Assembly (NCBI GenBank): GCA_902786595.1
Contig: CADADB010000002.1
Span: forward strand, 158,011 to 222,010
From: an uncultured Bacteroidota bacterium
Lineage (GTDB): Bacteria; Bacteroidota; Bacteroidia; Bacteroidales; WCHB1-69
Length of the DNA: 64,000 bases
Direction of reading: 5' to 3'
Part shown: positions 19-61,031 of the stretch, one piece after another
How the letters are laid out: every line of letters starts with the position of its first letter
Position numbering within the stretch: the stretch's first letter is position 1
Notes under the pieces: model-generated
The model's input: the letters and a program-made list of their open reading frames with translations, nothing else
The model's database searches: none
What the model was told of the DNA's origin: nothing
Translations under genes and position numbers: made by a program

Positions 19-90
19 GCCGTTGTAGCTCAGTGGTAGAGTACATCCTTGGTAAGGATGGGGTCATGAGTTCAACTCTCATCAACGGCT
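19..90 (+). tRNA. tRNA-Thr (anticodon GGT)
   Basis: 72-nt cloverleaf. Acceptor GCCGTTG/CAACGGC, anticodon stem CATCC/GGATG around loop TTGGTAA, T-arm ATGAG-TTCAACT-CTCAT. Lies directly upstream of tuf. Confidence 0.9.
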
Positions 91-144
91 CTTTTTTTTT
101 TGAAATGAACATAAGGAAGGTTTAATAACATAAATTTATAAAAA

Positions 145-1332
145 ATGGCAAAAGAAAAATTTGAACGTACTAAACCCCACGTGAATGTGGGTACAATCGG
201 TCACATCGACCACGGTAAAACTACTCTTACCGCCGCCATCACCACAGTGTTGGCCGACCAAGGTCTCTCTGAACTCAGATCTTTCGATTCTATCGACAAT
301 GCTCCTGAGGAAAAAGAGCGTGGTATCACCATCAACACCGCTCACATTGAGTATCAGACCGCTAACCGTCACTATGCACACGTTGACTGTCCTGGTCACG
401 CCGACTATGTGAAGAACATGGTTACGGGTGCTGCCCAGATGGACGGCGCTATCCTCGTTGTGGCTGCTACCGATGGTCCTATGCCTCAAACTCGTGAGCA
501 CATCCTGTTGGCTAAGCAGGTTGGCGTGCCGAGAATGGTTGTTTTCATGAACAAGGTTGACTTGGTTGATGACCCTGAATTGCTCGACCTCGTTGAAATG
601 GAAATCCGCGACCTCCTCAACTTCTACGGTTTCGACGGCGACAACAGCCCTGTCATCCGTGGTTCTGCCCTTGGTGCTCTGAACAAAGAACCCAAGTGGG
701 TTGAAAAAGTCATCGAACTGATGGATGCCGTTGACACTTGGATTCCGCTGCCTCCTCGTGATGTGGATAAAGACTTCCTCATGCCTGTTGAGGACGTGTT
801 CTCCATCACCGGTCGTGGTACCGTGGCTACTGGTCGTATTGAGACTGGTGTCATCCACACCAGCGATCCCGTTGATATCATCGGTATGGGTGCAGAGAAA
901 CTGAAATCAGTCGTTACCGGTGTCGAGATGTTCCGCAAGATCCTCGACGAAGGTGAAGCTGGTGATAACGTGGGTTTGTTGCTCCGTGGTATCGACAAGG
1001 ACGAAATCCGTCGTGGTATGGTTATCGCGAAACCGGGTTCCATCCATCCGCACAAGAAATTCAAAGCTTCTGTGTATGTGTTGAAGAAAGAAGAAGGCGG
1101 CCGTCACACTCCGTTCGGCAACAACTATCGCCCGCAATTCTACTTCCGCACCACTGACGTTACCGGTGCCATCACCCTGCCTGCAGGCGTTGAAATGTGC
1201 ATGCCTGGTGATAACGTGGAAATCACGGTGGAACTGCTCTCTGAAATCGCTCTGAACATGAACCTCCGTTTCGCTATCCGTGAGGGTGGTCGTACGGTCG
1301 GCGCTGGTCAGGTTACTGAAATCTTAGACTAA
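145..1332 (+). CDS. tuf: Elongation factor Tu
   Basis: 395-aa ORF with [18 protein letters not shown] and NKVD GTPase motifs. Reads as full-length EF-Tu. Confidence 0.99.
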
Positions 1333-2237: not shown

Positions 2238-2267
2238 TGTAGAGACGTTTCAGGAAACGTCTCTACA
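2238..2267. repeat. GTAGAGACG palindromic element, T-subtype (H1)
   Basis: TGTAGAGACGTTTCAGGAAACGTCTCTACA, 3 nt after the deacetylase stop. Confidence 0.9.
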
Positions 2268-2340: not shown

Positions 2341-3468
2341 ATGAATCCCATACAGATGGTCGATTTGAAAAGTCAGTATCTGCGCATCAAGCCGGAGGTG
2401 GATGCGGCCATTCAGCATGTGTTGGATTCAACGGCTTTCATCCAAGGTTCTTCTGTTCGCGAATTTGAAGAGCAGCTTGGTCAATACTCTGGTTCTAAGT
2501 ATGTTGTGAGCTGCGGTAATGGTACTGACGCGCTTTTGGTCGCTTTGATGGCCTTGGGTGTTGGACCCGGCGATGAGGTTATTACGGTTCCTTTTACTTT
2601 CGTGGCATCGGTGGAGGCCATTGCGCTTGTAGGAGCAAAACCGGTCTTCGTGGATGTTTGCGAGGATACCTTTACGATGGATCCCTCCTTGTTGGAATCG
2701 GCCATCACCCCGAAGACCAAAGCTATCCTTCCTGTGCATCTTTATGGTCAGTGTGCGGATATGGAGCCGATTTTGGATATTGCTAAGAGACACAATATCA
2801 AGGTGATAGAAGATGCTTGCCAGGCCGTTGGGACGGAATACTCCTTTGCTGACGGAACAGTGAAACAGGCAGGAACGATGGGCGATATCGGATGCCTTTC
2901 CTTCTTCCCTTCAAAAAATTTAGGATGTTATGGAGATGGCGGTGCTATGATGACACAAAATGTCGATTGGGCCGCGAAACTTCGCGCTATTTGCAAGCAT
3001 GGTTCAATAGAAAAATATCACCATGTGTGTCTGGGACTGAATTCGCGCTTGGATGCATTGCAGGCCGCTGTCTTGCAGGTGAAACTCCACCATTTGGATG
3101 AGTTTATCGCCAACCGCAAAGCTGCCGCCCGGTTTTATTTCGAGGCCTTAAAGAATGTTGATTGGATAGAACTTCCTGATAATAAAGAGAATACAGTGCA
3201 TACGTTTCATCAGTTCACCATTAAAGTGAAGGAAGGTAAGCGGGATGTGTTAAGACAGTATTTGACCGCGAAGGCGATTCCTTCAATGATCTATTACCCC
3301 ATTCCGGCGCATTTGCAGCCCGCCTATAAGTATTTGAATTACAAGGAAACGGATTTTCCCGTTTCGGAACGACTGTGCAACGAGGTTTTGTCTTTGCCAA
3401 TGCACACAGAACTCTCTGAGAATCAGTTACAATATATTTGTGAAACCATCGTTAATTGTCCGCTATGA
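2341..3468 (+). CDS. DegT/DnrJ/EryC1/StrS-family sugar aminotransferase
   Basis: 375 aa with the typical N-terminus [10 protein letters not shown] and GNGTDAL, plus SFFPSKNLG containing the PLP lysine. Confidence 0.9.
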
Positions 3469-4040
3469 AGGATTATTTTGCACACGAGACCGCCGTTCTA
3501 GACGAAGGATGTCAGATAGGAAAGAACACCAAGATCTGGCATTTCACGCATGTCATGTCGCAGGCAGTGGTTGGTGAAAATTGCGTCATCGGACAGAATG
3601 TGATGATAGCAAATCGTGTAACTTTAGGGAACAACGTGAAAGTGCAGAATAATGTCTCTGTTTATGAAGGTGTTACATGCGAGGATGACGTTTTTTTGGG
3701 TCCATCGATGGTGTTCACCAACGTCATTAATCCAAGGGCCTTCATTGAACGGAAGCTGGAGTTTAAACAGACCTTGGTGCGGCGAGGAGCAACAATAGGC
3801 GCGAACGCAACAATCTTGTGCGGTCACACCATTGGGCGTTATGCGATGGTCGGCGCTGGGGCGGTGGTCACTTCCGATGTGTCGGATTATGCGCTGGTGG
3901 TGGGGAATCCTGCCCAGCAAATTGGTTGGGTCAGTGAATACGGACACCGTCTTCTGTTCGATGAAACGGGCAGCGCCTCATGTCCTGAAAGTGGTCAAAA
4001 GTATCAACTATTTGATAATCAAGCCAAACGAATAAAATAA
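3456..4040 (+). CDS. Hexapeptide-repeat sugar N-acetyltransferase (WbpD-like)
   Basis: 194 aa of left-handed beta-helix hexapeptide repeats ([20 protein letters not shown] and others). Overlaps the upstream aminotransferase by 13 nt. Confidence 0.85.
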
Positions 4041-4041
4041 G

Positions 4042-6642
4042 ATGGTTAAAACGATTACTCGTTTTCTTTTGATTTTCATTACGTTATTGGCTGTTAAACC
4101 GATGGCTTTCGCTACGCATCAACGGGCCGGAGAAATCAGTTATACCTACATTTCCGGGTTGACATACGAATTCACTATCGTCACTTACACGTACACTCCA
4201 AGTCCAGCCGATCGTCCGCAGATTGAAGTGTTTTGGGGCGATGGCACCTCTTCGGAGATTGACCGTTTCATCAAGGTCAATATGGAGAACAACATCAGCA
4301 AGAACGTGTATGTCACGCAGCACACTTTTCCGGCTGCGGGCACTTTCCATGTCACTTTTGAGGACCCTAACCGAAATGCCGGCATCGTGAACATCCCGAG
4401 TTCGGTTGAGATTCCCTTTTTCATTGAAACCATCTTGATTATCAACCCTTTCATAGGAGGAAACTCTTCGCCGCAGTTGTTGAATCCGCCTTTGGACAAC
4501 GGTTGTACAAATGTCCCTTATTATCACAATCCAGGCGCATACGATGCGGAAGGGGACAGTCTTTCATACTCCTTGATTAACTGTCGGGGGTATGAAGGAG
4601 AGGATATTCCGGGTTACACATTGCCGCAGGCATCCAATTTCATAGCTATTGACCCAATTACTGGTGATTTGACATGGGATTCCCCCCTCATGGCAGGAGA
4701 ATACAATATCGCCATTCTGATTGAGGAGTGGCGCAACGGAGTGTTTGTCGGCAGCATGGTCAGGGACATGCAGATTACCATTGCGCCCTGCAATAATGAG
4801 CCGCCTGTGGTGGAAGTGTACGACACATGCGTGATAGCTGGTGCCAGAATAGATTTGCTCGTGCATGTCAAGGACGAAACCTCCACTCATGTTACGTTGA
4901 CGGCGACAGGAGAACCTTTCTTGCTCGGTGTGTCGCCTGCTCAGTTTGCCGAGATTACAGACAGTGTTCCATACGTCACCCATTTTGTTTGGCAAACGAC
5001 CTGTGAACATGTAAAGTCGGTTCCATATGAAGTACTATTCAAAGCTAAGGATAATGGTCCGCAAGTGGAGCTTGTGTCGTTTAAAACAATTCGCATTCGT
5101 GTGATCGCGCCAGCTCCGGAAAGCCTGCATGCCGTCCCGGAAGGAAATCTAATTCACTTGGATTGGTCTCCTGACTCCTGTTCCAATGCAGTCGGATATG
5201 ATGTGTATCGTCGAAACGGAAGTGATGATTTTGTTCCCGATTCCTGTCAGACTGGATTGCCGACGGAAGTTGGTTATTCTAAGATAGGGTCCACGTTTTC
5301 TTGGATTGATACGGTTTTTACCGATGACGGCACTACGAAACCGCTATATCATGGTAATGAATACTGCTATCGTGTGGTGGCGTTGTTCCCGGATGGATCG
5401 GAGAGTATAGTGTCGGATAAGGTGTGTGTCCATATTGCCAATGACGCGCCTATTATCATCAATTCTGATGTCGTAACCACAGATAAAGAGAGCGGGGAAG
5501 TGCTTGTGCGCTGGCTGTTTCCGCCAGAAATGGATTCCGTCGCCTTCCCGCCACCTTATGAGTATCAACTCTTCAGAATTTCTGAGAATCAAGAAAATGA
5601 ATTGATTTATTCGGTTAACGCGCCTGAAAATCCGAGTGATACACTTTTCTTTATGGATGGTAATCTAAATACGTCAGATTTTGATTATACTTATCGTGTT
5701 GAGATTCTCAATTCTGACACTGTTATCGAAAATTCGGATCCCGCTACATCAATTTTCCTTACAGTAGCTTCTGCCGATAAACGTTTGGCTCTTTCCTGGA
5801 CGGATACACAACCATGGAATAATATAAGCTATACGGTGTATAGATACAATAATCATACTGTCAGCTGGGATTCTCTTGCAATAGTCGCTGAGCCATATTA
5901 TACGGATTATAACCTTGAAAATGGGAAGACATACTGCTACTACATTAAGGCAGAGGGTTATTATTGGCTTCCGGACACTATTGGAGCACTTTATAACCGT
6001 TCGCAGCAGGAATGCGGTGTGCCGTACGACAATGAGCCCCCTGAGATGCCGGAAATCACTATCTCCACGGATTGCCAAAATGTTGAATTCAACTGGGTGT
6101 TCAGTTCCGATTCTGCTGCCACGGATGCAGTACATTACTATATTTACTACAAACCCACTTTGGAAGGGACATTTACTTGTATTGACTCTTTCGACAATGC
6201 TGAGATTTGTTTTCCAGCACCATGTAGCTATTCAATATATGCAAGCGGATCCGAGGTGCTTGTCGGTTGTTACGCCATGCAGGTAGCTGATAGCAACCGC
6301 AATGCCACTGAATTGACAGATTCCGTGTGTATTGACGTGTTTGATTGTCTGGATTACCAACTGCCGAATGTGTTCACTCCGAATGGTGACGGCATCAACG
6401 ACATTTTCACGCCGTTTATGCCCTATTCCGGGATTGTCAAGATCGAGATGGAGATTTACAACCGCTGGGGCAAGCGGGTTTTCCGCACGACTGACCCTGA
6501 CATTCTATGGGACGGCAGCGATGAAACCACCAAGCAACCCTCCTCCGACGGGGTTTATTACTACGGTTGCAAGTTGTTCGTCAACACGCTTTCGGGTGAG
6601 GTAACCTATTTGTTGAACGGGTCCATCACGTTAATCCGATAG
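4042..6642 (+). CDS. Large secreted protein with T9SS type-B (gliding-motility-associated) C-terminal domain
   Basis: Signal peptide followed by THQRAGEISY. The C-terminus reads LPNVFTPNGDGINDIF...WDG...GVYYY. Confidence 0.85.
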   Translation: MVKTITRFLLIFITLLAVKPMAFATHQRAGEISYTYISGLTYEFTIVTYTYTPSPADRPQIEVFWGDGTSSEIDRFIKVNMENNISKNVYVTQHTFPAAGTFHVTFEDPNRNAGIVNIPSSVEIPFFIETILIINPFIGGNSSPQLLNPPLDNGCTNVPYYHNPGAYDAEGDSLSYSLINCRGYEGEDIPGYTLPQASNFIAIDPITGDLTWDSPLMAGEYNIAILIEEWRNGVFVGSMVRDMQITIAPCNNEPPVVEVYDTCVIAGARIDLLVHVKDETSTHVTLTATGEPFLLGVSPAQFAEITDSVPYVTHFVWQTTCEHVKSVPYEVLFKAKDNGPQVELVSFKTIRIRVIAPAPESLHAVPEGNLIHLDWSPDSCSNAVGYDVYRRNGSDDFVPDSCQTGLPTEVGYSKIGSTFSWIDTVFTDDGTTKPLYHGNEYCYRVVALFPDGSESIVSDKVCVHIANDAPIIINSDVVTTDKESGEVLVRWLFPPEMDSVAFPPPYEYQLFRISENQENELIYSVNAPENPSDTLFFMDGNLNTSDFDYTYRVEILNSDTVIENSDPATSIFLTVASADKRLALSWTDTQPWNNISYTVYRYNNHTVSWDSLAIVAEPYYTDYNLENGKTYCYYIKAEGYYWLPDTIGALYNRSQQECGVPYDNEPPEMPEITISTDCQNVEFNWVFSSDSAATDAVHYYIYYKPTLEGTFTCIDSFDNAEICFPAPCSYSIYASGSEVLVGCYAMQVADSNRNATELTDSVCIDVFDCLDYQLPNVFTPNGDGINDIFTPFMPYSGIVKIEMEIYNRWGKRVFRTTDPDILWDGSDETTKQPSSDGVYYYGCKLFVNTLSGEVTYLLNGSITLIR

Positions 6643-13355: not shown

Positions 13356-13430
13356 GGTAATGGTTATGGGTTATGGGTTATGGGTTATTGAGGGTTATTG
13401 GTTATGGGTTATTGGTTAGGAGGTTAAGGT
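13356..13430. repeat. Period-7 array (GGTTATG), G3-tract rich
   Basis: ggtaatggttatgggttatgggttatgggttattgagggttattggttatgggttattggttaggaggttaagg. Abuts the cvpA ATG. Confidence 0.9.
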
Positions 13431-13476
13431 TTTTTAGATGTTTAATTTGGCGGCAAAAGTACATAAATTACCATTG

Positions 13477-13502
13477 TCGAGACGCAAAATTTTGCGTCTC
13501 GA
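13477..13502. repeat. Palindromic element, A-subtype with variant outer arm (H2)
   Basis: TCGAGACGCAAAATTTTGCGTCTCGA, a perfect 26-nt palindrome. Confidence 0.85.
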
Positions 13503-13523
13503 TGGAAATTCCGCTTTTTTTTT

Positions 13524-13554: not shown

Positions 13555-16500
13555 ATGAAAAAGACATTTACTTTCCTAACCATAATGCTACTGTTTGCGG
13601 CGGTTTCGGCGCAGACGGTGAGTGTGACGTTTACGGGGCGCGATATCAATGACTTGTATGTGCCGCTGCAACGGGTGGTTGTCAGTAACCTTACCAAAGG
13701 CTGGCAGGATACGTTGACTTGGCCCAATGATACGGTACTGACGATGACGGACGAGACCGGTGTCGGGGATGTAGAGACGTTTCCTGAAACATCTCTGCGG
13801 TTGTCGCAAAACACCCCCAACCCATTTGACGGCACCACGTTTGCGAACCTGCAGGTGGCAGAACTGGGAGACGTGGTAGTAGAGATCACCGATATCACCG
13901 GACGCATTGTAGGGGTGAATCATTATTCTCCCCTACAGCCAGGCATCCACGGAATCCGTATCACCCTCACTTCGGCAGGCATCTATTTCCTGACAGCGAG
14001 GCAAAACGGGATGACCTCTTCGGTGAAGATGGTGAATCGAACTAACGGTGGCAATAACTCCATTGCCATCAACCCTTCAGTTCTACAACTCAAAAGCAGT
14101 CACAGAGATGGTACAGACAATCCTTTTGAGGCAGGTGACCAAATGGAATATGTGGGCTTTGCCACCCTTGATGGCATGGAGGTCGAAAGCGAGCATATCG
14201 TACAGGTGCAGGAAGTCTCAGAGCTGATTACACTTTCTTTTTCTTCCTCAATGGAAGTCACGGATGCTCAACCCTGCCCTGCCACGCCAACCGTGACGGA
14301 TCACGAGGGCAATGTCTATCAGACGGTTATGATTGGCAATCAGTGTTGGATGCGGGAAAATATGCGTTGTGTGACCTCTCCGAGTACGGGTACCTACCTT
14401 GTGGATACAACCTATAATAGCACCTACACAGGCAAGATGGCAAAAAGATATAGGCATTATGATTCTATAACCGTGGACAGCAGTTTTGGTTTGTTGTACA
14501 ATTGGAATGCCATGATGGACACGTTCAACATAGCATATGGGGAGACCAGTGTGGACGACAGTGCCGACCATGCTTTTTCTGTGAATTACAACGGTTACAG
14601 ACGTGGCATTTGTCCGGCAGGTTGGCATCTCCCTACGGAAGACGAGTGGTGGCAGTTACTGTCTTATGTGATGTCACAACCGGATTACTGGTGTGACAGC
14701 TATTTTGATGATCACATTGCCAAGGCGCTTGCTTCCACAACCTCATGGAGTTATTTCTCTGATGAATGTTCACCAGGACACAACCTGAGCACAAACAATG
14801 CTACGGGGTTCAGTGCAATGCCTGCGGGTACTTTTACGAACAACACTTTCCCTACAGTGTTCCCCACATTTTGCTCTGCCTATTTCTGGACGGCCACACA
14901 ACATTCCAAAAGGAGTGCAAAGTCGCATTTCTTTCCATTCTGTAGTTCGACTGTTGATTGGGTATACAGCAACAAGTGTGATTGTTATTCAGTACGTTGC
15001 ATCCGAGGTGACGACACTTTTTCTGTCATAACGCCGCCCACGGTCACCACCGATTCTGTGATGGTGACACATACCTTGATAACCACGGTTACTTGTGGCG
15101 GTGATGTGGTATCGGATGGCGGTGCGCCGATTCTCACGCGGGGTGTATGCTGGAGTACCTCACCGAACCCTACGGTTGAGGATCCACATACCTTCAATGG
15201 CGATAGCCTTGGTTCGTTCACAAGCAACCTCATAGCTCTTCAGGCCAATACCACCTACTATGTGCGAGCATACGCCACCAATGAAGAAGGGATAGCATAC
15301 GGAAATGAGGTGGTGTTTTCCATGCTACCTACCGATTCCGTTCCCATAGCTGCACCTTGTCCCGGCATTCCTACAGTGACAGATATAGAAGGCAATGTGT
15401 ACAACACGGTTCAGATTGGCGCCCAGTGCTGGATGCGGGAAAATATGAGGGTGACTTATTTTTCGAATGGGTCGGCTGTTTCTCCTAACGGCTATTTTGA
15501 TTACAGTAGTTCAAATATTCCGTTTGTGGAACGCGGTTATTTATACAATTGGAATACGGCCATGCATGGAGCCTCTGCCACCAATGCCAATCCTTCCTGC
15601 GTGCAAGGCGTCTGTCCTATCGGTTGGCACGTGCCGAGTATTGCGGAGTGGACACAGCTCAGGAATTATGTGAGCAGCCAGAATCTGTTCGTTTGTGGAG
15701 ATTACTCGTGGTCTGTTGCCAAGGCATTATCTTCTACGACCGGATGGAATTATTTTTCAGAACTCTGTACTGTTGGCAACAGCCAAAGTACGAATAATGC
15801 TACGGGGTTCAGTGCTGTTCCTGCCGGTTGGTGGAAAGCAGCGTTTGGGCATTTTGACGATCAGGGGATGCATGCCTTTTTTTGCTCTACTACGAAATAT
15901 TATGGTAGTGTATTGAGTTGTCAACTATTTAACTACAGAAATGATGTGTTTTTTTATGATGGCTGCGATGTAGCCGATGGCCTCTCTGTTCGTTGCCTCC
16001 GCGATTCGCTCGGAGGAAGCGGCCATACGGTCTTCCTTCCCACGGTCACTACCGATTCGGTAAGCAATATAACGGATACGTCTGCCACTTGTGGCGGTGT
16101 GGTCACAACGGACGGCGGTGACACGATTATAGCTCGAGGGGTGTGTTGGGGAACATCATCGAACCCGACCATAGCGGGAGCTCATACTTCTGACAGTACG
16201 GGTTTGGGGACGTTCACGAGCAGCATTACAGGGCTCAACGCCGGTACCACGTACTATGTCCGGGCATACGTTACAAATAGTATAGGCACTTCCTATGGAA
16301 TGACGATGGCGTTCACCACAGCGCCTCTTACCCCGAATAACCAGCCTTGTCCCGATGCCCCTGTGGTGTTTGATTTTGAAGGTAATTCCTACAATACCAT
16401 ACAAATTGGTAACCAATGTTGGATGCGGGAAAACTTACGTTCCACGTACTATTCGGATGGTGAACCTATCCCTGCCGGGAACAGCAATATGAGCAGTACC

Positions 16501-17007
16501 AATCCTTACTATTATGACAATGGGATTTCAACACCATTGGAGGATCGAGGCTATCTGTATAACTGGCCTGCTGTGATGTACGGTGCATTATCAACGGAAG
16601 CTAACCCGTCCGGGGTGCAGGGAATCTGTCCCGACGGGTGGCACTTGCCAAGCAATGCAGAGTGGACACAGTTGATCAACTACTTAGGTACAGTCTCCGA
16701 TTATTGTTGTGGAGGCAATAGCAATTATATCGCTAAGGCAATGGCCTCACAGAGCGGTTGGCAGTCTACCTTTGATTACTGTACCCCTGGCAACAACCAA
16801 CTCGTGAACAATCTTTCAGGTTTTAGCGCTGTTCCTGTAAGTAATTACCTTGGAACACCAGGCTTTAACGCCGTCTTCTGGAGTTTTTCAGCAGGATCAA
16901 CCAGCTACTATGCCAAGGATTTTCAAATATACTGTTCTGCATCGAATGTGATTCAGGGTTCGTGTCCTACAGATTGGGGACTGTCTGTCCGCTGCCTCCG
17001 CGACTAA
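13555..17007 (+). CDS. Secreted multidomain protein with an N-terminal T9SS-CTD-like module and three FISUMP (Fibrobacter succinogenes major paralogous) domains
   Basis: Signal peptide MKKTFTFLTIMLLFAAVSAQ at the ATG 13555; the tracked ORF begins at 13438. Three repeats of CP..PTV.D.EGN.Y.T..IG.QCWM.EN...GYLYNW..A...CP.GWH.PS..EW..L...ATGFSA.PAG...SVRC.RD. Two Ig-like spacer domains. Confidence 0.85.
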   Translation: MKKTFTFLTIMLLFAAVSAQTVSVTFTGRDINDLYVPLQRVVVSNLTKGWQDTLTWPNDTVLTMTDETGVGDVETFPETSLRLSQNTPNPFDGTTFANLQVAELGDVVVEITDITGRIVGVNHYSPLQPGIHGIRITLTSAGIYFLTARQNGMTSSVKMVNRTNGGNNSIAINPSVLQLKSSHRDGTDNPFEAGDQMEYVGFATLDGMEVESEHIVQVQEVSELITLSFSSSMEVTDAQPCPATPTVTDHEGNVYQTVMIGNQCWMRENMRCVTSPSTGTYLVDTTYNSTYTGKMAKRYRHYDSITVDSSFGLLYNWNAMMDTFNIAYGETSVDDSADHAFSVNYNGYRRGICPAGWHLPTEDEWWQLLSYVMSQPDYWCDSYFDDHIAKALASTTSWSYFSDECSPGHNLSTNNATGFSAMPAGTFTNNTFPTVFPTFCSAYFWTATQHSKRSAKSHFFPFCSSTVDWVYSNKCDCYSVRCIRGDDTFSVITPPTVTTDSVMVTHTLITTVTCGGDVVSDGGAPILTRGVCWSTSPNPTVEDPHTFNGDSLGSFTSNLIALQANTTYYVRAYATNEEGIAYGNEVVFSMLPTDSVPIAAPCPGIPTVTDIEGNVYNTVQIGAQCWMRENMRVTYFSNGSAVSPNGYFDYSSSNIPFVERGYLYNWNTAMHGASATNANPSCVQGVCPIGWHVPSIAEWTQLRNYVSSQNLFVCGDYSWSVAKALSSTTGWNYFSELCTVGNSQSTNNATGFSAVPAGWWKAAFGHFDDQGMHAFFCSTTKYYGSVLSCQLFNYRNDVFFYDGCDVADGLSVRCLRDSLGGSGHTVFLPTVTTDSVSNITDTSATCGGVVTTDGGDTIIARGVCWGTSSNPTIAGAHTSDSTGLGTFTSSITGLNAGTTYYVRAYVTNSIGTSYGMTMAFTTAPLTPNNQPCPDAPVVFDFEGNSYNTIQIGNQCWMRENLRSTYYSDGEPIPAGNSNMSSTNPYYYDNGISTPLEDRGYLYNWPAVMYGALSTEANPSGVQGICPDGWHLPSNAEWTQLINYLGTVSDYCCGGNSNYIAKAMASQSGWQSTFDYCTPGNNQLVNNLSGFSAVPVSNYLGTPGFNAVFWSFSAGSTSYYAKDFQIYCSASNVIQGSCPTDWGLSVRCLRD
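13771..13798. repeat. Decayed GTAGAGACG element inside a CDS (H3)
   Basis: GTAGAGACGTTTCCTGAAACATCTCTGC, read in frame as VETFPETSL. Confidence 0.8.
13909..13936. repeat. GTAGGGG-type palindrome inside a CDS
   Basis: GTAGGGGTGAATCATTATTCTCCCCTAC, 12 of 14 positions paired. Read in frame as VGVNHYSPL. Confidence 0.8.
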
Positions 17008-17773: not shown

Positions 17774-17778
17774 AGAAA

Positions 17779-17825
17779 GGTTATAGGTTATGAGTTATAG
17801 GTTATTGAATGGTTATTGGTTATAA
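17779..17825. repeat. Period-7 array (GGTTATA/GGTTATT) at the mlaE-mlaF junction
   Basis: ggttataggttatgagttataggttattgaatggttattggttata. Confidence 0.85.
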
Positions 17826-24348: not shown

Positions 24349-24354
24349 TGTATT

Positions 24355-24414
24355 AAGGTTTAGGGTTTAAGGTTTAAGGTTAAAAGGTTAGGAGGTTAGA
24401 AGGTAAAAGGTTAA
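24355..24414. repeat. Period-7 array (AAGGTTT/AAGGTTA)
   Basis: aaggtttagggtttaaggtttaaggttaaaaggttaggaggttagaaggtaaaaggttaa. Confidence 0.85.
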
Positions 24415-26353: not shown

Positions 26354-26383
26354 TGTAGAGACGTTTCCTGAAACGTCTCTACA
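26354..26383. repeat. GTAGAGACG palindromic element, T-subtype (H4)
   Basis: TGTAGAGACGTTTCCTGAAACGTCTCTACA, between the sigma-gene stop and the parE start. Confidence 0.9.
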
Positions 26384-26450
26384 ACGACGTTTCAGGCGCG
26401 TCCATACAAAGGTTACATAATGGTTTTGCCGCATTCTTGAAAATGCGGCG

Positions 26451-26488: not shown

Positions 26489-27637
26489 TCACTGCTCACC
26501 GATAACCTGATACACCGTGTCCGACACGATGGTGGTGTCGCGGATCACGACGGTCCGGCGGACGGGCACCTTTTGGGTGATGATGACGGGGTCGGGATTC
26601 GTTGTTTCTTCCGTTTTCGCTAATGCGGCGGGTGGTGTCCCGACAACGCTGGCGGGTGACGTTTCGGCGTCGGTCCGTAGGGGCGAATAATTATTCGCCC
26701 CTACAACGGAATTTGTTCCTACAACGGATTTCGTCCCTACAACAGAATCTGTCGCCACAACGCGTTCCGTCAATGTATTCGTGTTAGGAGATGCAACCGT
26801 ATCAGGAGACATTGCGCGCACCGTCTCTACCATCGGGGACGGATTATTGGCCGGGTTTGGGGCGACGGGGTGGTGACGGCCCGCCTGCCAACCGACGGCG
26901 CCGCCCGTGATGCCCGCAGCCGTGACGAGGAGGAGGGTGGCCTTGTGCGCCGCGATAGCGGTGACGAATTTGCCCGGGGAGGTGGCCGCCGTTTGGACGA
27001 TTCCGGCGGCGGAATCCATTCGCAATCCCGACAATTTGGAACGGTACAACCGGTCCAACCGGCGGGAATCGGCGTTGGTTCGTTTCAGGATAAAAAGCAG
27101 GGGTATCATAAGCAATCCTTTCCTCTTGTTCTCTTTTTGTTTGTATTTGTCTGTGAGCATTTGGCCCAGACGCACGCGGGCCCGGTGGTGCAACTGCTTG
27201 GAGTAGGCCACCGAGATGTCGAGCAGTCCCGCGATGCGCCGGTGCGAGTATCCTTCGATGGCGTAGAGGTTGAAGACCGTCCGTTGCTGTTCCGGCAGCT
27301 GCTGGACGGTTTCCAACAGCTCCTTCTCTGTGAAGTCGGCGGTCCAAATCGGTTCGGTGTCTTCGTCTGGGCGTTCGGCGGCGGGTTCCGACTCCAAGGC
27401 GATGAAATCGGGCTTTTGTCGCAGGTAGTCGATGCAGTGGTTCACGGCGATGCGGGTCAGCCAGGCATCGAAGCGGCCGAAGGCGCGGTAGGCCTTGAAG
27501 GTTTCCATTGCCTTCAGGAACACGTCCTGCGCCAGATCCTGCGCCACCGTCCAGTCGTTGACATAGCGGTAGCAGATCCCGACAATCCTGCCGTGCCCCC
27601 TCCGGTACTGCTTCTCCCAAAATTTCGCCTTGTCCAT
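26489..27637 (-). CDS. ECF-type sigma-70 factor fused to a transmembrane segment and a low-complexity extracytoplasmic tail
   Basis: Probable start MDKAKFW at 27637. Region 2: DLAQDVFLKAMETF...DAWLTRIAVNHCIDYLRQ. Region 4: LPEQQRTVFNLYAIEGYSHRRIAGLLDISVAYSKQLHHRAR. About 200 further residues follow with one hydrophobic helix (ATLLLVTAAGITGGAVGW). Confidence 0.8.
   Translation of the reverse strand: MDKAKFWEKQYRRGHGRIVGICYRYVNDWTVAQDLAQDVFLKAMETFKAYRAFGRFDAWLTRIAVNHCIDYLRQKPDFIALESEPAAERPDEDTEPIWTADFTEKELLETVQQLPEQQRTVFNLYAIEGYSHRRIAGLLDISVAYSKQLHHRARVRLGQMLTDKYKQKENKRKGLLMIPLLFILKRTNADSRRLDRLYRSKLSGLRMDSAAGIVQTAATSPGKFVTAIAAHKATLLLVTAAGITGGAVGWQAGRHHPVAPNPANNPSPMVETVRAMSPDTVASPNTNTLTERVVATDSVVGTKSVVGTNSVVGANNYSPLRTDAETSPASVVGTPPAALAKTEETTNPDPVIITQKVPVRRTVVIRDTTIVSDTVYQVIGEQ
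26677..26704. repeat. GTAGGGG-type perfect palindrome inside the sigma-tail CDS
   Basis: GTAGGGGCGAATAATTATTCGCCCCTAC, 14 of 14 paired. Encodes VGANNYSPL. Confidence 0.9.
26701..26772. repeat. Four tandem 18-bp units inside the sigma-tail CDS
   Basis: ctacaacggaatttgttc / ctacaacggatttcgtcc / ctacaacagaatctgtcg / ccacaacgcgttccgtca. Encodes a (T/D)xSVVG hexapeptide repeat. Confidence 0.85.
26803..26830. repeat. Decayed GTAGAGACG element inside the sigma-tail CDS
   Basis: caGGAGACattgcgcgcacCGTCTCTAC. The right arm is intact and the left arm is decayed. Encodes VETVRAMSP. Confidence 0.6.
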
Positions 27638-27666
27638 TCGATACTGTTGCCGACTGCCTGCCCACC

Positions 27667-27734
27667 ACTCACTAATCACTGATCACTAATCACTAATATC
27701 ATAACGTGAAAAAGTGAAAAGGTGACAGCCGGGG
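27667..27734 (-). promoter_or_regulatory. Conserved leader element, copy A (upstream of the sigma gene; lacks the -7 box)
   Basis: Minus-strand reading: CCCCGGCTGTCACCTTTTCACTTTTTCACGTTATGATATTAGTGATTAGTGATCAGTGATTAGTGAG. Confidence 0.75.
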
Positions 27735-35459: not shown

Positions 35460-35489
35460 TGTAGAGACGCGCCATGGCACGTCTCTACA
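35460..35489. repeat. GTAGAGACG palindromic element, C-subtype (H5)
   Basis: TGTAGAGACGCGCCATGGCACGTCTCTACA. Confidence 0.9.
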
Positions 35490-36956: not shown

Positions 36957-36984
36957 GTAGAGACGCGCCATGGCACGTCTCTAC
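36957..36984. repeat. GTAGAGACG palindromic element, C-subtype (H6)
   Basis: GTAGAGACGCGCCATGGCACGTCTCTAC. The core is identical to H5. Confidence 0.9.
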
Positions 36985-48423: not shown

Positions 48424-48450
48424 GTAGAGACGCAAAAATTTTGCGTCTTA
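48424..48450. repeat. GTAGAGACG element, A-subtype with a decayed 3' arm (H7)
   Basis: GTAGAGACGCAAAAATTTTGCGTCTTA, 3 nt from the LRR-gene stop. Confidence 0.8.
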
Positions 48451-50045: not shown

Positions 50046-50073
50046 GTAGAGACGCAAAATTTTGCGTCTCTAC
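50046..50073. repeat. GTAGAGACG palindromic element, A-subtype (H8)
   Basis: GTAGAGACGCAAAATTTTGCGTCTCTAC, a perfect palindrome. Confidence 0.9.
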
Positions 50074-52260: not shown

Positions 52261-52288
52261 GTAGAGACGCACCATGGCACGTCTCTAC
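52261..52288. repeat. GTAGAGACG palindromic element, C-subtype (H9)
   Basis: GTAGAGACGCACCATGGCACGTCTCTAC. Its right arm supplies the TAG stop of the 1099-aa ORF. Confidence 0.9.
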
Positions 52289-56957: not shown

Positions 56958-56987
56958 TGTAGAGACGTTTCATGAAACGTCTCTACA
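56958..56987. repeat. GTAGAGACG palindromic element, T-subtype (H10)
   Basis: TGTAGAGACGTTTCATGAAACGTCTCTACA, a perfect 30-nt palindrome. Confidence 0.9.
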
Positions 56988-61001: not shown

Positions 61002-61031
61002 TGTAGAGACGTTTCAGGAAACGTCTCTACA
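61002..61031. repeat. GTAGAGACG palindromic element, T-subtype (H11)
   Basis: TGTAGAGACGTTTCAGGAAACGTCTCTACA, identical to H1. Starts 21 nt after the recA stop. Confidence 0.9.

Follow-up and report, generated by a model that had tools for sequence, protein, structure and literature searches.

In-frame double-foot REP elements at codon-fixed slots of a FISUMP surface-protein gene from a rumen Bacteroidales bacterium

We analysed a 64,000-nt stretch of DNA (hereafter the window) from an uncultured bacterium of the Bacteroidales lineage WCHB1-69 (contig CADADB010000002.1, positions 158,011–222,010). Two genes in it, one for an 1150-residue protein with FISUMP (Fib_succ_major) domains and one for a sigma factor with a long tail, contain short palindromes of the kind known as repetitive extragenic palindromes (REPs), which are translated as part of the protein (Table 1). 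The FISUMP protein begins with a signal peptide (MKKTF...AQ), followed by an Ig-like domain, an internal domain resembling the sorting domain of the type IX secretion system (T9SS) and three FISUMP domains, which Pfam PF09603 matched in three stretches at 1.6e-83. Our results make it probable that the palindromes are double-foot REPs, translated in frame, in old codon-fixed slots (A, B and C) whose occupants are repeatedly replaced by current variants.

Both elements of the FISUMP gene were read GTA-first in the open reading frame (ORF) 13555–17007. The slot A copy was identical at 26 of 28 positions to a perfect intergenic palindrome of the same window (26355–26382), two positions having decayed; its arms paired at 10 of 12 positions, leaving two mispairs in the stem, its predicted DNA hairpin had a folding energy of −4.2 kcal/mol and its 3′ foot was CTGC, a single mutation from CTAC. 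The slot B copy, which starts directly 3′ of a conserved GRxV, matched the perfect copy at 26677–26704 at 25 of 28 positions (three mismatches) and retained the CTAC foot, with 11 of 12 arm positions paired (one mispair) and a hairpin of −8.7 kcal/mol (z −5.3). A first-pass annotation of this DNA had placed four elements, two in the FISUMP gene and two in the sigma-factor gene, in the same 5′-to-3′ order, and we confirmed all four coordinates and peptides. It had also proposed that they belong to a dispersed palindromic family kept in a stop-free frame of real coding genes, with which both the copies in the window and the reading frames of homologs agree.

The internal sorting-like domain scored 32.7 bits against TIGR04183 (cutoff 23) and 23.9 bits against Pfam PF18962, below the cutoff of 27. 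It is not C-terminal as in T9SS cargo, but lies at residues 87–160 of 1150, and the protein ends in a FISUMP domain. In an AlphaFold model (overall mean predicted local distance difference test score, pLDDT, 76) the domain was a β-sandwich; a Foldseek search of the model against the PDB returned generic Ig-like or fn3 sandwiches only and was uninformative on the sorting-domain fold. The first-pass annotation had assigned the elements to tolerant linkers or loops. This holds for slot A, which falls in a low-confidence linker of the model (residues 68–78, pLDDT <50), and the slot C region (residues 175–185) likewise had pLDDT <50. It does not hold for slot B: residues 118–127 form a predicted β-strand with block-mean pLDDT of 85–92, and the element adds no length there.

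The in-gene copies belong to a family present throughout the window. Its members take the form GTAGAGACG-N10-CGTCTCTAC, with a second family GTAGGGGCGAATAATTATTCGCCCCTAC, and both are 28-nt palindromes; the palindromic cores of the GTAGAGACG family were TTTC(AG/CT/AT)GAAA, C(G/A)CCATGGCA and CAAAATTTTG. Shuffles of the window served as the null model, mononucleotide shuffles being used for the near-palindrome scan. GTAGAGACG alone occurred 19 times against 0.18 expected, and the two element patterns had expected numbers of matches of 0.00 and 0.01 in the shuffled window. Allowing ≤3 mismatches, the foot pattern recovered ten copies (0.01 expected), nine of them between genes or at gene ends and the remaining one in slot A. 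The scan found 23 near-palindromes of 28 nt, 11 with GTAG feet, whereas shuffles yielded 0–5 near-palindromes. All of the window copies begin with GTAG save the one at 13476, and every perfect intergenic copy ends in the CTAC foot. Perfect copies had a 12-bp stem and a 4-nt loop, inside the ranges that define double-foot REPs (7–20 nt fully paired, loop of 2–5 nt), with −10.8 to −12.9 kcal/mol and z of −6 to −8. Rfam at its gathering threshold reported only two tRNAs in the whole window (19–90 and 1387–1457) and nothing at the elements.

We then compared the FISUMP locus with its homologs. The first 232 residues had 44 homologous proteins (40–74% identity), and a metagenome scan added 80 loci; statistics were calculated on 72 non-identical loci (239 kb). 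The N-terminal module was kept in the 44 proteins and the 80 loci with its frame intact through the elements. Three positions of this module carried differing palindrome-encoded peptides: slot A in the linker before the sorting-like domain, slot B in the strand after GRxV within it, and slot C in the linker after it. Measured from the QNxPNPF anchor, 63–64 of the 80 near-perfect REPs of the 72 loci lay at −36, +102..108 and +270..303, offsets that make up ~2.5% of the sequence; slots A, B and C held clear elements in 33, 31 and 25 loci respectively. The elements do not show a scattered colonization of coding sequence but three codon-fixed slots re-occupied by different variants.

The slots differ in what the element does to the length of the protein. 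In place of the nine-codon element at site A, the homologs L004, L006 and L009 have six codons unrelated to it, FVTDGF or VANGGF. Site B kept a constant spacing: 11–12 residues separated GR from GxH in 54 of 60 loci, including the few that lack a recognisable element. Site C was the sole site to show presence or absence of 8–9 codons; it is empty in the window and in the closest homolog, L001, and L003 and L006 have GTAGGGGCGAATGATTATTCGCCCCTAC at the codon that is empty in the window. Clean indels of 27–30 nt, which had been expected between orthologs with and without the elements, were therefore not the general pattern. The GTTCTAC of the window at slot C was considered as an excision footprint, and rejected, as no consistent footprint model fitted both the window and L001. 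The idea that slots A and C bracket a REP-flanked mobile domain was also rejected, since distant homologs have the domain without slot A elements. L001 (positions 3001–4400; 73% identity) lies in another genomic neighbourhood, and in its first FISUMP domain TGA replaces a Trp codon that is otherwise conserved (IGNQC*). Gene calling accordingly split it into ORFs of 262 and 868 residues; it is possibly a pseudogene.

Evidence of turnover at slot B came in part from the syntenic orthologs that share the upstream genes of the window (cvpA, ham1 and L32), namely L003, L004, L007 and L009. The same GTA codon after GRxV starts a decayed copy in the window, a perfect GGGGCG 28-mer in L003, L006 and L009, and a perfect GTAGAGACGTTGCGCGCAACGTCTCTAC in L004. 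The three GGGGCG copies shared 28 of 28 nt, although the adjacent coding DNA was only 60–81% identical. Overall, 27, 23 and 20 distinct 28-mers occupied A, B and C in the 72 loci, with 7, 17 and 13 perfect palindromes. Occupants differed despite flanks of 90–94% identity at slot C (L154/L158 and L175/L006/L178) and at slot A (L167/L184 and L136/L003). Homologous loci often held an upstream intergenic REP at −337 to −446 that matched an in-gene variant (L140, L146, L149, L150, L152 and L156), and L129 and L130 had a composite slot B in which a full element adjoins half of another. Within one gene, slots B and C held the same variant in 10 of 17 cases (4.4 expected from shuffling across loci, uncorrected for relatedness). 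These observations argue for repeated replacement or conversion at fixed positions rather than a single old insertion that decays. L120 encodes an unrelated cargo protein whose sorting domain is genuine and C-terminal; in it an element directly follows GKVVRTV, at the position equivalent to slot B. In L129 (1055–1075 and 2545–2610) a DDE_Tnp_1 insertion sequence had entered the slot C REP (GTAGAGACGGGGCATGCCCCGTCTCTAC) and split the gene; it has inverted repeats CTACTCTTTATACACAT and duplicates TTATGTAGAG.

In-gene copies were also found at the borders of larger changes. Two homologs from independent assemblies, L007 and L008, had a single hybrid element whose left part and loop correspond to slot B and whose downstream flank is that of slot C of L003, with most of the sorting-like domain lost in frame. 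Similarly, ~125 residues present in the ortholog L089 were absent from L043 (RUG083), the gap running from a REP to that point of a true C-terminal sorting domain which resembles slot B. Half of an element had been duplicated in tandem at 26699–26762 of the window, within the sigma-factor gene, and a similar expansion was seen in L162.

The second gene encodes an extracytoplasmic function (ECF) sigma-70 factor with a transmembrane segment and a low-complexity tail. Its VGANNYSPL copy (26677–26704) was a perfect hairpin of −12.9 kcal/mol (z −8.0) with a CTAC foot. The VETVRAMSP copy (26803–26830), which precedes it in the same order as in the FISUMP gene, had an exact left foot and four mismatches in the right foot, and matched the TTGCGCGCAA variant seen in L004 at 23 of 28 positions. 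It was missed by the family search at ≤3 mismatches, and its hairpin was no better than those of shuffles (z −1.4). As this copy is weak on its own, its identity as a REP rests mainly on the corresponding column of the homologs, which read VETLRATSP, VETVCTPSL, VETVCIPSL or VETVCTPSP. The C-terminal end of the protein is conserved in homologs, indicating that the frame through its REPs is real. This family, too, points to renewed occupants: the VGANNYSPL column was nearly invariant while the flanks were unalignable between subgroups, and the tails of distant members contained as many as four REP peptides. The unit of the 18-nt tandem repeat consists of 6 nt plus one REP arm, and the number of SVVGTK/SVVGTN copies varied among close relatives, the window having two extra units, L045 one and P0048 fewer.

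The first-pass annotation stated that only one frame of the elements lacks stops. This is correct for the variants it considered, in which frame 2 meets TAG and frame 3 TGA or TAA, but not in general, because CAAAATTTTG, CGCCATGGCA and TTTCAGGAAA have an open third frame. In L091 (7383–7410; GTAGAGACGCAAAATTTTGCGTCTCTAC) the third frame was used, giving RDAKFCVST within a 1533-codon α-2-macroglobulin-like ORF; the same ORF has a heptapeptide, DAMNRNS, repeated about five times.

Among the remaining copies of the window, neighbours ~1.5 kb apart shared a core (35461 and 36957 both CGCCATGGCA; 48424 and 50046 both CAAAATTTTG), a sign that variants may spread or be converted locally. Right after the REP at 26355 lies an extra partial arm (26368–26395; GACGTTTCAGG) that can form an alternative hairpin with the right arm of that REP and is thus another half-element duplication. 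Heptamer tandem repeats were present between genes, beside gene starts, at 13362–13418, 17778–17823, 24353–24414 and 27669–27697; GGTTATG, repeated 7.7 times, lies just 5′ of the FISUMP gene, and the others were AGGTTAT, TTAAGGT and TCACTAA.

Table 1. Genes, domains, slots and REP copies of the window
Feature	Position	Strand	Basis
Intergenic family member, TTTCAGGAAA core	2239..2266	.	foot match
Upstream intergenic copy, altered feet (GTCGAGACGCAAAATTTTGCGTCTCGAT), GTCG start	13476..13503	.	palindrome scan
Host gene 1, 1150-residue ORF (FISUMP)	13555..17007	+	ORF list and Pfam
Slot A REP, GTAGAGACG family, TTTCCTGAAA core, read VETFPETSL (residues 73–81)	13771..13798	+	GTAGAGACGTTTCCTGAAACATCTCTGC
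Internal T9SS type A sorting-like domain, residues 87–160, holds slot B	13813..14034	+	TIGR04183
Slot B REP, GTAGGGGCG family, read VGVNHYSPL (residues 119–127)	13909..13936	+	GTAGGGGTGAATCATTATTCTCCCCTAC
Slot C, empty in the window: GTT CTA CAA = V L Q	14080..14088	+	ortholog comparison
Perfect intergenic copy, slot A variant (TTTCCTGAAA core)	26355..26382	.	palindrome scan, folding
Host gene 2, ECF sigma-70 factor, transmembrane segment, long low-complexity tail	26489..27679	-	ORF; Sigma70_r2 and r4
Perfect GTAGGGGCGAATAATTATTCGCCCCTAC, read VGANNYSPL	26677..26704	-	pattern match, folding
18-nt tandem repeat, 3.6 copies, SVVGTK/SVVGTN units	26699..26762	-	TRF
Half-decayed GTAGAGACG-type REP (GTAGAGACGGTGCGCGCAATGTCTCCTG), read VETVRAMSP	26803..26830	-	homolog column
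Intergenic family member, CGCCATGGCA core	35461..35488	.	foot match
Intergenic family member, CGCCATGGCA core	36957..36984	.	foot match
Intergenic family member, CAAAATTTTG core; partial copy at 48424	50046..50073	.	foot match
Family member, CACCATGGCA core, gene 3′ end, overlaps last bases of long minus-strand ORF	52261..52288	.	foot match
Family member, TTTCATGAAA core, between two minus-strand genes	56959..56986	.	foot match
Intergenic family member, TTTCAGGAAA core	61003..61030	.	foot match

In the first-pass annotation the elements had been likened to the palindromic elements of Rickettsia (RPEs). Ogata et al. reportedly described in 2000 that RPE-1 measures 100–150 nt and adds 30–50 residues, and RPEs are said to be confined to Rickettsia. 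The two systems are alike in that palindromic repeats are kept in frame in ORFs that stay intact. However, the present unit is 28 nt (nine residues) in a rumen Bacteroidales host and is kept fresh, whereas RPEs decay with their host genes and are not GTAG double-foot hairpins. The comparison is thus an analogy and not membership, and the closer analogue is the intragenic GTAG double-foot REPs of subclass 2.4 (PMC3733652, PMC6006769). A miniature inverted-repeat transposable element (70–300 nt, with 15–30-bp terminal inverted repeats and a target-site duplication) was ruled out by the total length of 28 nt and by the flanks of 122 copies, which showed neither a duplication nor a conserved target.

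The elements are 28-nt GTAG-tagged double-foot REPs (5′-GTAG...CTAC-3′), a type tied to subclass 2.4 of the REP-associated tyrosine transposases (RAYT or TnpA_REP). According to Quentin et al. (2018, PMC6006769), the cognate REPs of this subclass have a double foot, with GT[AG]G on the 5′ side and C[TC]AC on the 3′ side; the subclass, group 4 of Bertels, occurs in Bacteroidetes, Cyanobacteria and scattered phyla, and its REPs were found inserted in frame within genes, notably the tnpA_REP genes themselves (PMC6006769). GTAG- and CGTC-tagged REPs, some of them in frame in genes, were also described by Di Nocera, De Gregorio and Rocco (2013, PMC3733652). In-frame intragenic REPs have therefore already been published for this class, and the kind is known. 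We scanned one genome per species (genome contigs) for the exact 28-mer GTAGGGGCGAATAATTATTCGCCCCTAC and found it in >120 places, in rumen Bacteroidales, Dehalococcoidia and other Chloroflexi, Planctomycetes and Omnitrophota, and further in deltaproteobacteria, Synergistaceae, Fibrobacteria, Nitrospirae, spirochaetes and one cyanobacterium. Unrelated proteins that contained this GGGGCG 28-mer in frame were an amino-acid permease, DNA polymerase III δ′, UvrC and a ResIII helicase. It also lay in or directly beside RAYT-like ORFs, just past the HuH motif, in Desulfatiglans (L047), Tannerella (L078) and Chloroflexaceae (L011). The L047 ORF had the subclass 2.4 motifs NHIH, WQ and YILNNP; it matched NF047646, the NCBIfam model of the REP-associated tyrosine transposase, at 6e-15 without reaching the curated cutoff, and had no Pfam match at 1e-3, Y1_Tnp appearing at E 0.08 only. 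In a tblastn comparison of the window with the RAYT-like ORFs of L078 and L047, one such ORF matched the sigma-factor gene (26656–26773) at E 2.5e-5 via the REP-encoded peptide and its neighbours only. A literature search by sequence retrieved the GTAGAGACG string only in unrelated papers, and the GGGGCG element gave no result either as peptide or as DNA.

As in the study of Quentin et al. (PMC6006769), we found the same feet, a long perfect stem and in-frame insertion, including into tnpA_REP genes (L047, L078 and L011). That paper, however, deals with insertions into transposase genes and mentions others in passing, whereas in the present case the elements reside in a FISUMP surface protein and the tail of a sigma factor, the slots are codon-fixed with many alternating variants, one slot codes for a domain strand and the window contains no RAYT. 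Di Nocera et al. (PMC3733652) likewise reported short palindromic REPs in frame in ORFs and suggested that linkers or loops tolerate them; they also noted different REPs at about one site of the recB genes of two Xanthomonas species. Their set contains no Bacteroidetes GTAG REPs, more than half of their inserts were dimers or clusters coding for 20–30 residues, and the paper describes no systematic re-use of slots across dozens of homologs. A change of occupants at fixed positions is also known from RAYT loci: Nunvar et al. (2013, PMC3686654) described orthologous RAYT genes that have different classes of REP on their flanks in related strains. Those positions are intergenic and beside the transposase, whereas the slots described here lie within genes, remote from any RAYT. 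The novelty lies in codon-fixed slots whose occupants alternate and are often perfect, and in a strand encoded by a REP.

How might such slots be renewed? A resident hairpin with GTAG feet could be a preferred substrate for RAYT-type cleavage and rejoining; alternative routes would be short-patch template switching on that hairpin and conversion of one paralog by another. A new copy would land on the old one, selection would keep in-frame products of the right length, and in-frame deletions between two copies and half-element tandem duplications would arise as by-products. A stronger form of this scheme, which we put forward tentatively and regard as doubtful, is that the slots are dedicated: the resident double-foot hairpin would be a landing site where a RAYT-type enzyme or template switching swaps 28-nt cassettes in place, and, as every in-gene copy is in one phase, the slots would provide in-frame joints for domain deletion and shuffling in secreted proteins. 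Such swapping would explain how the gene can diverge around occupants that remain perfect and, even between phyla, identical.

Several observations weigh against the repeated replacement of occupants in fixed slots. The 64-kb window contains no RAYT gene (tblastn with RAYT-like ORFs matched the REP only), so the link to an enzyme is indirect for the host organism, and we know of no demonstration of RAYT-driven REP mobility in vivo. The comparison sequences were all metagenome contigs or metagenome-assembled genomes (MAGs). The borders of swapped occupants differed by about one codon, showing that replacement is not perfectly precise, and the swaps could instead represent independent insertion and deletion, or gene conversion between paralogous modules. 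The statistics on variants shared by slots B and C ignore how the loci are related. Moreover, the unit of 28 nt is no multiple of three and the flanks of the 122 copies showed only a weak Y(−1)/R(+1) preference that defines no insertion target; selection for frame and length must therefore filter the products.

Among the alternatives, ordinary coding sequence that resembles the repeat, or an ORF mis-called over a non-coding leader, can be all but dismissed. Slot B is indeed no longer than in distant homologs, and an exact look-up of the 1150-residue protein found no record in the gene-call collection. Matches of 25–26 in 28, however, have an expectation of about 0, the signal peptide and the two β-sandwich domains are conserved among homologs and confidently modelled, and an identical locus (L131) was recovered from a metagenome. 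At the element positions the orthologs checked carried perfect palindromes or other residues, which agrees with the repeat-derived origin claimed in the first-pass annotation and argues against a chance look-alike. Random insertion filtered by selection, with the three sites as the sole places in the gene that tolerate nine extra residues, seems to us unlikely, although it fits the low-confidence linkers at sites A and C, the frame bias (explained by stop codons in the other frames) and the GGGGCG 28-mers in unrelated proteins, often in loops. It sits poorly with slot B, a predicted core strand with no gain in length, and with elements that share the same codon and not merely the same linker. 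Although further linkers exist in the 3.3-kb loci, such as those that separate the FISUMP repeats, 80% of the elements fall in 2.5% of the sequence, and L120 has its element at the equivalent position of an unrelated protein.

We also weighed whether each slot stems from a single ancient insertion whose arms are kept complementary by hairpin-templated (quasipalindrome) correction, so that lineages drift to different perfect palindromes. The positions are codon-fixed and many variants differ symmetrically in both arms (ATGTGCACAT versus GTGTGCACAC, GTAGAGAAG...CTTCTCTAC, GTAGAGCCG...CGGCTCTAC), as this scheme would have it, but we find it very unlikely: exact GTAGGGGCGAATAATTATTCGCCCCTAC recurs at slot B between flanks that are 60–65% identical and in the >120 places in many phyla, making independent drift implausible, the base families GGGGCG and GAGACG alternate between relatives with 90–94% identical flanks, and in-gene copies match nearby intergenic ones. 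Finally, the in-gene REPs could be kept for a role as DNA or RNA: they might serve as in-phase joints at which recombination deletes or shuffles the domains of surface proteins, or form hairpins in the mRNA where two domains meet. The in-gene copies all share one phase, so that recombination between any two stays in frame; two in-frame deletions are bounded by REPs (L007/L008 and L043), the elements are better conserved than their coding flanks, and slots A and C bracket a domain. Nevertheless, there are two deletion cases only, one of them in a single MAG, and both could be accidental by-products, while decayed copies occupy many slots, those of the window included; we judge such a role improbable. 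Taken together, the comparison favours old codon-fixed slots with repeatedly replaced occupants.

These results place the double-foot GTAG class of REPs in the coding sequence of surface and regulatory proteins of rumen Bacteroidales, and the model of the FISUMP protein suggests that a REP may encode a structural strand and not a spare loop alone. VGANNYSPL, VETxxxxSL and RDAKFCVST are marker peptides of REP-encoded segments, and they cause spurious similarity between unrelated proteins. By creating in-frame deletions and tandem expansions, in-gene REPs are a source of variation in secreted proteins. The three slots, with ~20 or more alternating variants, form a compact natural dataset on how REPs are renewed, be it by replacement, conversion or re-insertion. 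If cassettes are indeed swapped in place, the slots would be a natural record of REP replacement in vivo, a process never directly observed.

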